DNA of 63,690 nt, the filler included, from Reclinomonas americana ATCC 50394 (lineage: Eukaryota): NCBI GenBank assembly GCA_048213135.1. It is 4 parts of 3 records of this genome, joined end to end, with 100 filler letters (N's around TTAATTAATTAA, not from the genome) between each part and the next. Parts side by side here need not be neighbours in the genome. Positions count along the whole stretch, not along the records: positions 60,387 to 63,690 come from PS015514.1; 3 more parts are not named here. The stretch is one strand, 5' to 3'. Shown in pieces: positions 50,619-63,690 of this stretch. The first letter of the stretch is position 1, and every line of letters begins with the position of its first letter. Both the position numbers and the translations under genes were made by a program. Below the pieces are notes generated by a model that searched no databases, had not been told where the DNA came from, and saw only the letters and a list, made by a program, of their open reading frames with translations.

Positions 50619-53600
50619 ATGAGCGGGGAAGGTTTGTGATCCCAGTTGAAGTCACTTTGATCATCATCATCGTTGTCATCATCAAAGTGCGCAGACTCCA
50701 GCAGCAGCAGCGACGAGGAATACTCGACTCGCAAACAACCAGTGCGCACTCAAACACTCTGTCTCTCTCACGCTTTCACTCACTCTTACTCGCTCACTCA
50801 CACACAGGTTGACAATGATCAGCACATGAGCGATGTTGTCGGTGTGCTCAGTCGCGAGTCTCTGCGTGGCATTGCCGCAGCAGTGGAGAAGTCCGACAAG
50901 GCCAAGGCTGAGATGGCCGCACTCAAAGTTGAACAAGACACACACAGAGAGAGTGAGTGTCACACATGCACACACTGCTCACACACACACGCTCTTCTGC
51001 AGGCGCAAGCGCGAAAGCGACAACAGCGCGGGCTTGTTGCGCGTTTGCGTCGCGAGTTGCATGAATTGGAGACGACTCCGCAACTGCATCGTGTGCGCTT
51101 TCGCACGCGCAAGGAAGAGCTCAGTGAGGCACTGGAGAAGGCGCTCTCGCAGCAAGCTGGCGAAGAGGATGTGCTGATGCGCGGGTCGCGACAGCCGATC
51201 ATTCCGATGGGAAGGCCGATGCATGTGGCGAGAAAGGCGGAGAAGGCGAAGGAGCAGGAGAAGGCGAAGGAGAAGGACTCTGCTGCTGCTGTTGCTGTGG
51301 AGGAGGAGAGTGACAGCGAGTTTGAGGAGGTGGACGCGTCGGGAGAGCCTGTGACGACGCTGGAGGAGACCGACGACGGTGTGGAGGAGCAAGACAAGAA
51401 GGCATCATCGCCGTCGGTGTCGGAGGACGACAGCGAGGAGGAGGAGGTCAAACCTGCGAGGAAGCCCACTGCGAAGCGAGGCAAGAAGGCGCCGTCGCCG
51501 TTGGTGTCGGAGGAGGAGGTCAAGCCGGTGAAGCAGCGTGCTGCGAAGCGAGGCAAGAAGGCGCCGTCGCCATCTGCCTCGGAGGAGGACGACAGTGAAG
51601 AGGAGGTCAAGCCGGTGAAGCAGCGTGCTGCGAAGCGAGGCAAGAAGGCGCCGTCGCCGTCTGCCTCGGAGGAGGACAACGAAGTGGGGGAGGTCAAGCC
51701 AGCAAGGAAGCCCGCTGCGAAACGTGGCAAAGAGGCGCCGTCGCCGTCGGCCTCGGAGGAGGAGGACAGTGAGAAGGAGGTCAAGCCGGTGAAGCAGCGT
51801 GCTGCGAAGCGAGGCAAGAAGGCGCCGTCGCCATCTGCCTCGGAGGAGGACGACAGTGAAGAGGAGGTCAAGCCGGTGAAGCAGCGTGCTGCGAAGCGAG
51901 GCAAGAAGGCGCCGTCGCCATCTGCCTCGGAGGAGGACGACAGTGAAGAGGAGGTCAAGCCGGTGAAGCAGCGTGCTGCGAAACGTGGCAAGAAGGCGCC
52001 GTCGCCATCTGCCTCGGAGGAGGACGACAGTGAAGAGGAGGTCAAGCCGGTGAAGCAGCGTGCTGCGAAGCGAGGCAAGAAGGCGCCGTCGCCGTCTGCC
52101 TCGGAGGAGGACGAGGTGGAGGAGGTGAAGCCAGCGAGGAAGCCCGCAGCGAAACGAGGCAAAAAGGCGCCGTCGCCGTCTGCCTCGGAGGACGACAGCG
52201 AGGAGGAGGTCAAGCCGGTGAAGCAGCGTGCTGCGGAGCGAGGCAAGAAGGCGCCGTCGCCGTCTGCCTCGGAGGAGGACGAGGTGGAGGAGGTCAAGCC
52301 AGCGAGGAAGCCCGCTGCGAAACGAGGCAAGAAGGCGCCGTCGCCGTTGGTGTCGGAGGACGAAGTGGAGGAGGTCAAGCCGGTGAAGCAGCGTGCTGTG
52401 AAGCGAGGCAAGAAGGCGCCGTCGCCGTCTGCCTCTGAGGAGGAGGAGGTGGAGGTCAAGCCAGCGAGGAAGCCCGCTGGCAAGCGAGGCAAGGCTGGGA
52501 AGAACAGCCGTCGGTCATCCAAATCTCGTGATGAGGACGATGAGGATTATGTGGCTGCAAGTGGCAGCGACAGCGCGAGTGCCAGTGATGGCGATGACGA
52601 CGACGATGCCAGCAGTGTCAGTCTGGACTCGGGGAGTGACTTTGTGGAGGAGTCGCCGACGCGAAGGCGGCAGAAGAAGGCGACACCAGAAAAGAAGAAG
52701 AAGGCGACACCGGCAAAGAAGAACACGCCAGTCAAGCGCATGGCATCGTCATCCGAGGACGAACACGAATCTGCACCGGCGCGAAAGAGGCCTCGTGTTC
52801 AGCCGGCGAAACGCAAGTCAAAAGCCGCCGTTGCCGCTGCCGCCCAAGAGAGCGACGTCAAGGAAGATGCCGATGGGGACGGCAGTGACTTTGAGGCGGT
52901 GGATGTGGACGAGGCGAAGGAGCAGGAGGCGCTCGCTGGTGGCGACGAAGCTGCGGCCGATGGAGACGACAGCAAGAAGAAGAAAAAGAAAAAGGCGGCA
53001 ACGGGGAAGAAGGCTGGAGGCAAGACGGGCAAGCGGGCTGCCCCAGCGTGGCGACCGTCGGCACAAGACAAGGAGCGCGCCTTGGAGGCACACAAGGTGC
53101 ACTTGCTGCTCCTCGTGCACGAGCAGGTACTGCTGAGCCAGTTGTGCGATGACGATGACCTCCACGTTGCGTAGCGATGGTGGAAAGAGGGGGCAAATCA
53201 CTCGGGTGGACACTCACAACCATTGGCTCACTGCAGGGCGTTCTGCTGTCGCTCATGTGTTCGGCAGCTCCGTCGGAACTGGTCGACCCAGAGCAGACGC
53301 TGGATGTGCGCCTGCCGTTGCTCATGCGGTGGCTGTCGGAGACGTTTGAGCTGAAGCCGCCGCCGGCGGTCACCGAGGCGCAACAGACAGCCTCCACGAC
53401 CGACTTGCTCGCTGCGGTGGAGGCACGCACTGTGTCCGGTCTCGACATGACTCTGGTTTGTGCTGGCGACTCGACAAGTGTCTGCCATTATGTTGACAGT
53501 CCACGCTTCCTGTTGCCAGTTGTTTGTAGCCTGCTGTCGCGCGCTCTCGCTACTGGCGCGGTTGGTGGTCTCCCTGCGACCCGTGTCGCCCAAGCCGCAG

Positions 53601-57924: not shown

Positions 57925-58460
57925 AGAGATGAATCGTAGATGTACATGTTGTTGCTGACTCGGGGAGAAGAGGAGGACGTGTAGTGGAGGGGCTGAAGGA
58001 GGAGAAGGCCAATCTCGCTGAGTAGATACAGAGTTGCTGCGATGGGTGAACTAAAGAGAAGAGAAAAAAGTGCGAGGTAATGCAGGGGCAGGAGGAGAAA
58101 AGCGATGGCACTCGAACAGCGGAAAGCTTCTGTGATACGGTGCAGCAGAAATCGGGAGGAGGGAAAAGAATGCCCTTCGGAAGCAAATGTGTTAGAGGGA
58201 CATGCGCAGGAGGAGGAGGAGGAGAATGGCGTGGCAAGCCGAGCTCGCAGAAGCTGGCGTCGGGTTTGGTGGAAGGCAGCGAAGACGGAATGGTTCAAGG
58301 GTTCTGCCACGTGATAATGCTGGCCGACCAAGCAGATCAACGTTGCAACTGTCGCCGGAAGAATAAGCACATGAACAAAGGAGCTGCGGTTGACCGACGG
58401 ACTGCTAACGAGTGGTGATAGGTGCAAGACTGACGTTGCCGGCAGGACAACTCGCTTCTA

Positions 58461-59723
58461 ATGTTCCTGCTCGGCGCCGACGAACCTGGCATCGTCTGCA
58501 ACATCCTCAGCTTCCTCCCACCCTCCGACCTCCTCCTTGTTGCGACACTCTCTCACACACGCACTCAGTCTCACACGCTCACTCTGTTGTCTCAGCGCGC
58601 GGCTGTTGTCTGCCAAGCCTGGCACCACTGCTCGCAAGAAGACGCAGTGTGGGTGCGCCTGCTGCCCTCACTATGGCCATCCTCCGATCGCCGCACATGC
58701 ATGCTGCTCAAGCATCGTGATCACACGAGACTGCTGCAAAGAGTGGCATCCTCTGTCGTGCTCCGTCGCCTGCTCAAGCGAGTCGCGGAGGCAGAAGGAG
58801 GAGCAGGAGCAGGAGGACCAATGGACAGTGGGCAGTGCAGTCGACTGGTGTTTCGAGGGAGCAAGCGGGTGCAGCCGGAGATTAATCCGGATGGGGCGCC
58901 CATGCGGACGCACATGTTTGTGGATGCGGTGTTGCCGGGTGGTGGGTTTGTGGGGCGGATGCAGTACTGGTATACGGTGGAGGATCCCGGGTATGCGGCG
59001 ATGGAGCCGGCGGGTGAGGAGAAAGGGGGGAGAAGGGGAAGGGAAAGGGGGGAAAGGGGAAGGGAAACGGGGGGGAAAGGGAGAGGTGAAGGGGAGAAAA
59101 AGCAATGAGCAAGAAGCCGGCAGGTGAGGAAAGGGGGAGAACAAGGGGGACAGTGAAAGGGGGATGAACAGGAGAAGGGAGAAGGTGAGAGGAGAGAAGA
59201 GTGAAGTGCACACTGTGGAGAAAGAGCGATGAGCAAGGAGTCGGCAGGTAAGGAAAGCGGGAAGAAGGGGAAGAGAAGCAGGGACAAGGGAGCAGAGGAG
59301 AAGTGTGAAGAAGGGAGACGGATAAAGTGCACTCTGTGGAGAAAGAGTGATAAGCAAGGAGTCGGCAGGTGAGGAAAGCGGGAAGAAGGAAGAAGGGGAG
59401 GAGAGGAGAAGAAGGAAGAAGGATAAAGTGCACGCTGGGGAGAGTGAACAACGAGCAGGGGCGATATCTGGCACGGCGTCCAGTCTCGCTTGACTTTGCG
59501 GGAGATATTGGTGAGCTGCACTGTTGTCACTCACCGTCCCTCTTGCCCACGCAGTGTGTCGTATCACCGGACGACTTGTGAGTGTGGAAGACGAGGGGCG
59601 CGTGGCACAGCTGACGTTTGAGGAGAACAGCGTGCACGTGAGCGAGTTTATTGCGCGCATCATTAGACAAGCAAGGCTGAGCGATTGCCTGCGCAGAATC
59701 CGGAGCGTGGACGCGGCATGCAA
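58461..59723 (+). CDS. F-box protein (partial; start may lie further upstream, 3' end truncated)
   Basis: Spliced IVCNILSFLPPSDLLL/RAAVVCQAWHHCSQEDAVWVRL matches the F-box pattern; further in-frame exons follow. Confidence 0.8.
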
Positions 59724-60559: not shown

Positions 60560-60674
60560 ATCGCACACATTTTTGATCATCCTTGCGCTCTCTGTTCTAA
60601 TCTCTCTCGACAGTTGCTCCCCTCCGTCCCTTTCTCCCCCTTTCCCCTCCTCCCTTCCGTCCTCCCCAACTCAC

Positions 60675-61638
60675 CACCAATATCCCACAAATGCACTCGC
60701 ACACGACTGCCGTTCCACAAGAGGCCCTTGATGTGAAAATCAACGCCCAGCGTCTTCAAATACGCATTCTTGAACTCATCCTTCGTGTACCGCATCACCA
60801 GCGACGTCTTCCCACAGCCCTGCTCGCCGACCACGATAATCTTCACAATCGGCTCCTTGTCGCCCCAACCTGCACCATGCGCCGACGCACTCGCCCTGCT
60901 CAACAACCCCGACGCACTCGCCGTCGACTCCAACGCCCTACGATGCCGTCCCGAGTGCGATCCCCCTACAGACTCCGACACAGTGGTCGACTCCTCGCGA
61001 TGCACTCGCTCCCCGCGACTGACAACAATCGTCTCCGCCTATCATGACAAGAGTGATCGATCAGACATGACACATGCGAGATTCGTCTGATGCCGTGTTT
61101 CCCGCTGCTCACCGCCACTGGTGCCACGACAGACAGCTCGCCGTGACTGTGATAGTGATGATGATGATGTCTGGCGTGTCTCTGTGGTGACACGCCTTCT
61201 CCTTCTCCAGTCACCACTGACTCTTGTGTTGTTGGTGACAGTGGTGCTTGCTTGGGTGTCATGGCGGCGACACGTGTCGTGTCGAGTGGCTCTGAGGAGG
61301 AGGCGGAGGAGGCGGAGGAGCGCGAGGAGGCCAGAGAGGGCGGGGACACGGGTGCAGAGTCGCTTTCCGCGGCGACGACGACGACGCAGGGTGTGGGAGA
61401 GGCAATGATGACAGCGGCCGCCTGTGTGTGAGAGTGAGTGAGTGAGTGAGTGAGAGAGAGTGTGTGAGTGAGTGAGTGAGAGAGAGTGTGTGAGTGAGAG
61501 AGAGCAGGAGAGAGTGTCAGTGAGCGTGGAATCTGATCTCTCTCTGTCACTCACTCACGCGCGCGTGCACACATCCTTGTGCGTGAGAGTGTGCTTGTGT
61601 GTTGTGTGTGTTGTGTACGCAACAGTGGCCGCACTCAT
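60675..61638 (-). CDS. Rab-family small GTPase, Rab32/38/29-like, with a long N-terminal extension (3' part missing)
   Basis: KIIVVGEQGCGKTSLVMRY (G1), YLKTLGVDFHIK (G2) and LLWNGSRVRVHLWDIGG (G3). ATG at 61638 in a CACCACCATG context. Confidence 0.85.
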
Positions 61639-62607
61639 GGTGGTGTCGGCGATAATTCTTACGCGAAAACGGCTCTGTGTGTGCAGAGCGCGCGGGACCG
61701 GTTGATTGGTGATTGGTGGTGGCCGTGTTCACTCTTCCCTTTGCTGCTTTGTGTAAAAAGGAAGCGAGTGGCGTTGGCGTGTGCGTCGGGGCGCGAAACG
61801 ATAAAAGGTTGGCTGTGTCGATCGTTGTGCAATTCGTGGCGGCTGACCTTGCGATATCGAGCTTGTCAACTGACCGAGCGGCGAATCGGGCCGATCGGGG
61901 TTTCTCGTTGTACGGGAATATGTAATTGAGGCGTGCTGGGTGCTCGTCTGGGTCCGGTCGGGAAGGGAACGGGATGGGAAGGTGAATTCGAATTCGAAAG
62001 GCCTGCATGCCGATCCGGTGAAAACTGGATGTTCGGGGTGAGCGCAGCGTTCACCTCCGCAAAGTGCGCAGCAGTGCAGGAGAGGCTGGATGCAAGGTGC
62101 CCGTGCATTGCCTACCGTTTTCCATGGAGTTTCTCGCACAAACAGCAGCATTTGCAATTCGCGAGTGGCAATTGCATTTCGAATTCGTCGCACAGTTGTC
62201 GCACGAGCAGCATTCTCGCTTCCACAGCTATATTTGAGGAGGCGACCGTCATGCCGTGCTGCTTCTGCGGAAAGCCGTGGACTTGTATCGTCGTCGTTTG
62301 TGAATTCGAAAACCAGCAACGATGCATGCATATGAATTCGGAAATCGCAGCACAAGCGCAGCGCGCGCGCGCTGTGCGGCCTACTCGCTCCATCATGGAT
62401 TTCTGTCGCGTCACAGTATTCGGTTGCAGAAGCAGCGCGTACTCGCGGGACACTGTAAGCTGCAGCTGTGCTATCGATCGTTTCTTGTGTGTCCTGAACT
62501 TTTTCTGTGAGCACGCAATACGCAACGCAGCATACGAGCACCGCAACGTGTTTACCTGCAACAACAACAACACCAGCACCAACTTCAATCAATCATCAGC
62601 ATCGAGA

Positions 62608-63690
62608 ATGTCGGTGTGTTGACACATGTATTGATGCACGACATGGGGGACGCGACATATTGGAATGGCTTCGCTCATGTTGTGTACTTGTGTTGTGTAC
62701 GCTGTGACGTCGCCCACTGTCAGTTTTCTGTGAACGTCAGTGCAGCACATGATTCGTCGCTGTCGGTGGTGGTAGAGGGCTTGTCAGCCATGTCCACTCT
62801 CGCGGACTTGCTGCGCGAGGCCACACGCCTGCTGCGTGAGACGAGTGGAGATGGAGAGTTGGAGATTGTGGGGATGGAGAAGCCGCTGTCACTCAGCATT
62901 GAGTTTGTCGGTGGCGTGCCCCTCGTCGGACTCGGCATCAACTCATCCACTCATCTCGTTTTCCGTGTGAACCTTCGCGTGGCGCTGCAGTCGAATGGAG
63001 GAAGTGGGACTGGGAGTGGAAGGTATGTGTCTTGAACGCATCATCGTCAGCGCAAGCATGCAACTCACTCATCTTTACACAGCAACTCGGAACAAGCGAC
63101 TCGGTTTGTGTTGCTTGCCTTCGTCAACCTTCTCCCTTCCTTGATCCTCCACTCGAAGCGAGTCTGTGCTGACTGCGTTTGTGCACACACAGTATGATCA
63201 ACTTCAATCGCGTCAACATGGCCTCGCAGGTGGTGGAGGAGGCTGTGCGTCTGCGCTGTCAACGCGTTCTGGCGCAGTTCAGTCGCGATCATCCCGAGTT
63301 TGATGTGCGGGCGTGGGTGCCGAGTTACACGCCTGCTGGCATGGATGCGGCGGCGGTGAAGGCATGGCGATCACGATATGTGCCTGTCACTGGGTGGCAG
63401 GTCAAGCTATTCAGGGAGGTGTATAAGGAAGTGTTCACATGGCGTGCGGCATTCGACGCCGCCCCCTCGTCCGACCCTCCGTGTGACCGTTTCGACACGA
63501 CGGCACTCACGTCCATCATGCTGTATGGTGGCCTCATTCTTGATGACGGCTGCAAGCTGTTACTGATTGACAATGCTGATGAACGCAAGGCGGTGGAGCA
63601 GCTGCGTGACGTGAGGAACGAGTTGGCGCATGGTTCTTTGGCGTGGACGGATGACACGGTGCAACAGCACCTCGGTGACAGTGGTGTTTT
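62608..63690 (+). CDS. Ubiquitin-like domain + HEPN (RNxxxH) domain protein; runs off the window end
   Basis: Exons 62608-62613, 62724-63022, a micro-exon at about 63084-63103 and 63193 to the end. The last exon, absent from the ORF track, encodes DRFDTTALTSIM..AVEQLRDVRNELAHG. Confidence 0.7.

Follow-up and report, generated by a model that had tools for sequence, protein, structure and literature searches.

In animals and Capsaspora, proteins are known in which a HEPN domain of the DZIP3/hRUL138-like (PF18738) or CXorf38 type stands before a NACHT domain. They have been described from cnidarians, bivalves and cephalochordates, and in the pearl oyster there are more than 50 HEPN-NACHT genes, with the motif kept in 194 of 202 HEPN proteins (PMC3710099, PMC9646362, in part; sources so marked were available as partial texts). 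Fungal NOD-like receptors (NLRs) exchange heads on near-identical nucleotide-binding and oligomerisation domains (NODs; PMC4986451, in part), and HEPN and caspase effectors are described on the bacterial STAND (signal transduction ATPases with numerous domains) and bNACHT proteins (10.1101/2022.07.19.500537, PMC3501461, PMC13581612, in part). We report here on a gene that begins at position 62608 of a 63,690-nucleotide stretch of DNA (the window), joined from four parts of the genome of the microbial eukaryote Reclinomonas americana ATCC 50394 (GCA_048213135.1), and that runs off its end. On balance, what the window shows appears to be the front of a gene for an NLR-like STAND sensor that acts directly as an RNase and would be switched by a NACHT domain. 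Little is settled about the ways in which free-living protists sense viruses and intracellular bacteria, and our literature search, with most subscription journals outside its coverage, found no report of such a family in a protist.

The gene belongs to a large family. A search of the 108-Mb genome with its exon 4 (165 amino acids) gave 169 candidates, 150 of which were scored, and at least 159 matches, mostly of 50-80% identity, some of them pieces of one gene. From 130 fetched loci we retained 126 distinct copies, the 62608 copy included, in which the match reached residue 150; shorter ones were dropped. The original prediction, made on the window alone, had called for a paralog count, and the answer is more than 120 copies, from a recent expansion. 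A ubiquitin-like (Ubl) exon lies upstream in 116 of the 126, five of the ten without it being at a contig edge, and a Walker A motif follows in the same open frame in 117. The frames reach at least 1,000 amino acids before a stop in 69 copies, are open at the fetched end in 36, stop early in 15 and hit N gaps in 6. NACHT and Pentapeptide were above the Pfam cut-off in three of three copies, and 9-14 WD40 stretches were present in four of four. Complete paralogs read Ubl, HEPN-like head, NACHT, pentapeptide and WD40, with about 1,400 amino acids after the Ubl, and have what characterises NLR-like STAND proteins, a NACHT with intact Walker A and B motifs and the tripartite order of effector, NOD and superstructure repeats. 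The further sensor domains predicted beyond the window are present in the paralogs; in the 62608 copy, about 4.2 kb past the window end consists of N, and the NACHT-WD40 part is what the paralogs would lead one to expect.

The likeness to animal HEPN-NACHT proteins, as described in the partial texts, lies in the N-terminal R-x4-6-H head before the NACHT, the lineage-specific expansion and the WD40 C-termini (WD40 or TPR in animals). Unlike in animals, the head is not detectably PF18738, a Ubl stands in front of it, the NACHT is of the pentapeptide-WD40 type, a caspase-like domain can take the place of the head, and the host is a microbial eukaryote. The single-chain enzyme-switch-sensor design is also that of the bacterial STAND/bNACHT proteins, and the caspase-headed paralogs repeat the cyanobacterial metacaspase-NACHT-pentapeptide-WD40 layout, as far as the partial sources describe these, but here there are spliceosomal introns, a Ubl header, more than 100 copies and eukaryotic host contigs. 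In database searches, the NACHT-to-pentapeptide region came nearest to NACHT-pentapeptide-WD40 proteins of Mortierellaceae fungi and Mycoavidus endosymbionts (26-33% identity, E down to 4e-51), between which a possible transfer has been discussed (10.1101/2022.03.16.484565, in part). Unlike the family here, these proteins had no Ubl or HEPN head that profile searches detected, and in a quick tree the family NACHT forms one clade apart from them (SH-aLRT support 100).

Judged from its conservation among paralogs, the 62608 gene is real and not a chance frame. Four exons join through three introns, all GT...AG, into an open spliced frame of 274 amino acids (Table 1). The gene is under coding constraint, because the third codon position is the least conserved in both large exons (paralog identity 0.82/0.88/0.72 and 0.78/0.84/0.67 by codon position), 90 of the 93 paralogs that have both large exons retain the splice acceptor of exon 4, and the ratio of nonsynonymous to synonymous substitution (dN/dS; 102 copies) is low, at 0.32 for the head and 0.15 for the NACHT. 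The start codon, the exon 2 peptides, FDTTALTSIM and RNELAH all lie where the original prediction placed them, and the frame that it gave from 63194 meets no stop before the window end, but it had missed the 21-nt micro-exon between the linker exon and that frame. The strict pattern of this micro-exon is present in 43 of the 93 paralogs, and its DNA identity is 81%, as compared to 73-76% for the adjoining introns. On average, exon 2 can be aligned to 106 paralog loci and intron 1 to about 4.

Table 1. Features of the 62608 gene, and the loci in which a caspase-like domain replaces the head.
Feature	Position or locus	Strand	Remark
Exon 1 (ATG TCG, Met-Ser)	62608..62613	+	GT directly after; similar ATG-xCN-GT 5' of exon 2 in 73/93 paralogs
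Intron 1 (GT...AG, phase 0)	62614..62723	+	Splice model; low paralog alignment
Exon 2	62724-63022	+	Product FSVNV...VVVEGLSAMSTLADLL...LVGLGINSSTHLVFRV
Ubiquitin-like (β-grasp) domain, exon 2	62724..62975	+	Variable patch at exon residues 55-70
Gly/Ser linker, end of exon 2	62976..63022	+	Translation; low pLDDT (model confidence) at model residues 87-92
Micro-exon 3, 21 nt	63083..63103	+	SNSEQATR across junctions; AG 5', GT 3', phase preserved
Exon 4 start, probable HEPN domain; ends with window	63193..63690	+	Paralog matches; structure model; weak HEPN profile matches; Atlas features
FDTTALTSIM, exon 4	63491-63520	+
R-N-x3-H motif (RNELAH), predicted RNase active site	63614..63631	+	Column conservation among paralogs
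Caspase-headed NACHT loci	L144-L151, L154, L155 (G000 C8026, C1213, C2848, C80, C987, C1339, C2703, C245, C6397, C360)

The head with its RNELAH motif is probably, if not provenly, a HEPN domain. An RNase site of this superfamily consists of R-x4-6-H in which the R is followed by a polar residue, most often N, D or H, and long inserts are allowed (PMC3710099). The motif R and H are each kept in 122 of the 126 copies by alignment column, and the residue after R is N in 98 (the 62608 copy included), K in 27 and I in 1, and H in three divergent copies. In the structure model the fold runs from a long helix 1 through an insert, the DTTAL helix and a β-hairpin to the motif helix (128-146), with the motif at its end. 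Positions 143 and 145, between the R and the H, are variable (2.5 and 2.2 bits), and R141 (numbered from the M at 63194) is Arg in 100 of 102 copies with all six Arg codons in use. In helix 1, E15-x3-R19 fits the upstream E-x3-[KR] pattern (E in 98/122, R in 119/124), a match by sequence pattern only. Other residues are equally invariant within the main family, and the telling test of the motif is therefore across subfamilies. There it is kept in 11 divergent copies in which the motif exon is just 22-31% identical: R-[NH]-x3-4-H is present in all seven intron-rich NACHT copies, where the domains N-terminal of the repeats were compared, and in four copies that precede a different P-loop, that of a second STAND chassis.

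Several results leave the HEPN assignment short of proof. The motif alone is near chance, since R-x4-6-H appeared in 54% of 20,000 shuffles of the 165-residue exon and R-[NDH]-x3-5-H in 9.5%, and 17 of the 21 sampled heads on the second chassis no longer carry it. A 66-copy profile gave no match at E 0.001 among 1.84 billion representative proteins, and neither did Foldseek in its PDB and viral libraries at the same threshold; PDB sequences gave chance matches only. The likeness to DZIP3/Swt1-like HEPN domains in the original prediction was not borne out at profile level, as neither family reaches its curated cut-off: PF18738 had no match among 66 members at E 0.1, and for PF18731, which matched weakly in 29 of 66 members (best E 0.00048), the 62608 copy scored 18.5 bits against a cut-off of 27.5, in the motif helix only. 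The single PF18738 match in the genome (L143; E 0.6, 15.9 bits) is at an unrelated locus and was set aside. Taken together, the comparisons make HEPN ancestry of the head very likely, and RNase activity in the main family likely.

The position of the head is marked as an effector slot by its replacement with a caspase-like domain. A search of the genome for the NACHT gave 220 candidates, of which 150 were scored, and at least 154 matches. At ten loci with a main-family NACHT, the HEPN-like head is replaced by an intron-split caspase-like domain with an SGHG motif, which carries NCCR, an unusual nucleophile context, wherever that exon was seen; Peptidase_C14 was above the cut-off in four of four His-exon pieces. 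The NACHTs of these genes are 77-87% identical to those of HEPN-headed ones, and three of the ten loci (L145, L148, L155) retain the same Ubl exon. In a poorly resolved quick tree, from which L155 was omitted for an N gap, the 9 caspase-headed NACHTs are scattered (9 changes) in a set that also holds 45 HEPN-headed rows (a sample), 2 divergent ones and 7 from outside the family. A swap that arose just once was not rejected (approximately unbiased test, p-AU 0.594; 9 rows against 24, with outside and divergent rows dropped), and because of this the sequences let us claim an exchange of heads, not a repeated one.

The caspase-like exon was found at 17 places (26 matches). Ten of these are the NACHT loci, six adjoin the P-loop of a second STAND family, and the last is at the end of a contig. 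This second expanded family (L163, L165-L169; P-loop GDGGTGKS, TPR_10/12 repeats) has caspase- or HEPN-like heads and often lies in tandem on one contig. Its P-loop exon has 118 genome matches, and TPR repeats follow in both cases tested. Caspase-like and HEPN-like heads are both found near the second P-loop, and therefore both heads occur on both chassis. The HEPN-like heads with a replaced motif (REVFEQ or REVFDL; L168:975-1169 and L165:2318-2512, both on the minus strand, and L170-L185) form a recently expanded clade; the motif exon of second-chassis heads has 70 genome matches. Such heads are possibly inactive sensors or decoys. Near-identical NODs with differing heads, and NACHT-WD40 beside a second, NTPase-TPR type, are also features of fungal NLR repertoires (PMC4986451, in part), but the effectors here are HEPN-like and caspase-like and not HET, HeLo or PNP.

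The sensor was studied in 544 WD40 units of 42 amino acids from 67 complete genes. Variability is highest at positions 7, 9 and 25 (3.6-3.7 bits), followed by 6 and 27, with V8 and D26 conserved between them. In the NACHT-WD40 proteins of Podospora (NWD/HNWD; het-d, het-e), which also have 42-residue repeats, positive selection acts on codons 7, 9, 25 and 27, which lie on the top face (PMC1805685, in part). Here pN/pS at these codons is 1.20, 1.28, 1.23 and 0.90, values that are uncorrected and no proof of positive selection. Unlike in Podospora, the repeats are less homogenised, with a mean DNA identity of 74% within genes (82-87% in 11 genes), as compared to 0.70 between genes.

The N-terminal exon had been predicted to be β-grasp-like, and this is borne out by structural support and the β-β-α-β-β topology of a ubiquitin-like fold. 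It does not look like a conjugatable Ubl, which has a fixed diglycine after the last strand: a variable linker follows instead, and the GG about 10 residues past the last strand in the 62608 copy is missing from many paralogs. The variable patch gave a pN/pS of 0.72, not above 1, and positive selection there is not supported. A search of longer proteins (8,000 candidates) gave no homolog at E 1, a result that counts for little; the Atlas had no usable match and PDB sequences gave chance-level matches only. A Pfam Methyltransf_8 match (E 0.06-0.08) was discarded as chance, given the predicted fold. The Ubl would seem to be a header common to both effector types, serving as adaptor or in localisation or turnover, and not the trigger.

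The working of the sensor can be pictured from established STAND and HEPN biology, from which all the following steps are taken. The top face of the WD40 propellers would bind a foreign or altered protein, and the NACHT would then exchange its nucleotide and oligomerise. Active sites of HEPN domains are dimeric and their RNase activity is metal-independent, and oligomerisation could pair the heads into a composite R-N-x3-H site. The paired heads would cut RNA, leading to translation arrest or death of the infected cell. Of the Ubl-regulated RNase in the original prediction, the RNase remains probable; the switch is here assigned to the NACHT and not to the Ubl, which both effector types have in common.

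It is also conceivable, if unlikely, that the receptor is the same and the head a non-catalytic helical adaptor, of HEPN descent or otherwise, which oligomerises with or recruits partners such as the caspase-headed paralogs. The fold searches without a clear HEPN match would agree with this, as would the expansion of the second-chassis clade with its motif replaced, and inactive HEPN versions such as Swt1 are described (PMC3710099, in part). Against this, the R and H are retained at 22-31% identity in several subfamilies and on two chassis, R141 stays Arg through all six codons, and the alternative occupant of the slot is an enzyme. An outward toxin, with the Ubl delivering a HEPN or caspase domain that poisons prey, competitors or symbionts, seems improbable to us. 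Crinkler/CR proteins do have an N-terminal Ubl header followed by exchangeable enzymatic domains, an NTPase and a large expansion (PMC5289972, in part), some fungal NLRs carry a Crinkler Ubl (10.1101/2022.03.16.484565, in part), and atypical headers without LxLFLAK are noted in the former review, so that kinship with the Ubl here is possible. But the LxLFLAK motif was not found in this Ubl, 57 Ubl members gave no Crinkler profile match at E 0.1, the family has no REase (restriction endonuclease), and its tripartite order with variable WD40 surfaces is the layout of an intracellular NLR.

The match of the variable WD40 positions to het-d/het-e, and the repeats being somewhat closer within than between genes, would also suit allorecognition or a selfish killer, in which the ligands are the cell's own polymorphic proteins, as with HET-E/HET-C, and the RNase would destroy siblings or the products of incompatible fusions. 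We regard this as very unlikely: more than 120 copies far exceed the ten-member NWD family (PMC1805685, in part), and our data gave no sign of cell fusion in this organism. That the 62608 copy itself is truncated or dead is most improbable; its downstream part does read N and 15 of the 126 copies stop early, but splice sites and motif are all intact over 274 amino acids, and the unread stretch of about 4.2 kb could accommodate the 3.7 kb or so taken up in complete paralogs.

Each part separately, and the HEPN-NACHT fusion as such, had already been described; this analysis contributes a count over the whole family, support for the Ubl from its structure, the retention of the motif across subfamilies and its loss in one clade, and the WD40 positions that match fungal NWD genes. 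If the NACHT-switched RNase sensor is correct, more than 120 receptors have variable sensor faces, and the two catalytic residues (R/H) of a single-chain RNase effector offer a switch for a direct test, with the caspase-headed and motif-dead paralogs as natural controls. Swapped heads and diversified WD40 surfaces, a pattern known from fungi, would then also occur in a further lineage of eukaryotes, and the HEPN superfamily would gain a family without detectable relatives. As a wider and tentative possibility, this microbial eukaryote, which is neither animal, plant nor fungus, may have more than 200 NLR genes that form a combinatorial repertoire, in which two STAND chassis (NACHT-pentapeptide-WD40 and P-loop-TPR) combine with two direct killers, a lineage-specific HEPN RNase and a caspase-like protease. 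On the NACHT chassis a shared Ubl would precede them, and the large motif-dead HEPN clade would provide sensors, decoys or brakes for the active copies. A single cell would then have an immune system that works mainly by destroying RNA.

Synonymous divergence (dS) differs along the genes, with 0.86 in the head, 0.46 in the NACHT and 0.34 in the pentapeptide region (102 copies), and the lower values suggest that the NACHT/pentapeptide core is homogenised by gene conversion. The 5' flank of the 62608 gene (61901-62607) is common to just one other fetched locus, the remaining paralogs differing upstream, and there is therefore one very recent duplicate or allele; no second family member was found within the window. 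Two loci, L152 and L153 (G000 C10, C122), have a divergent intron-split HEPN head (RNEVVH) and two tandem Ubl-like exons, and their NACHT shares about 90% identity with that of the main family. The L156-L161 subfamily (G000 C559, C3679, C397, C398, C2915) has a NACHT 53-59% identical, a different Ubl-like exon and R-x5-H. It is rich in introns, whereas head and NACHT of the main family lie in one intron-free exon, and introns have therefore been lost or gained between them. Downstream at L013 (5993-7519, plus strand), a 508-residue frame resembles by eye a class I SAM (S-adenosylmethionine) methyltransferase (VGEIGVYQG, ISIDGMH).

Elsewhere in the window, a Ras/Rab-family small GTPase exon (60577-61038, minus strand; Pfam Ras, E 9e-15) is transcribed away from the NLR-like gene. 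A tandem repeat with a unit of about 25 codons (50963-52546) lies inside a long plus-strand frame (50661-53171), and a plus-strand frame at 58434-59108 starts F-box-like by eye (IVCNILSFLPPSDLLLVA...VCQAWH).
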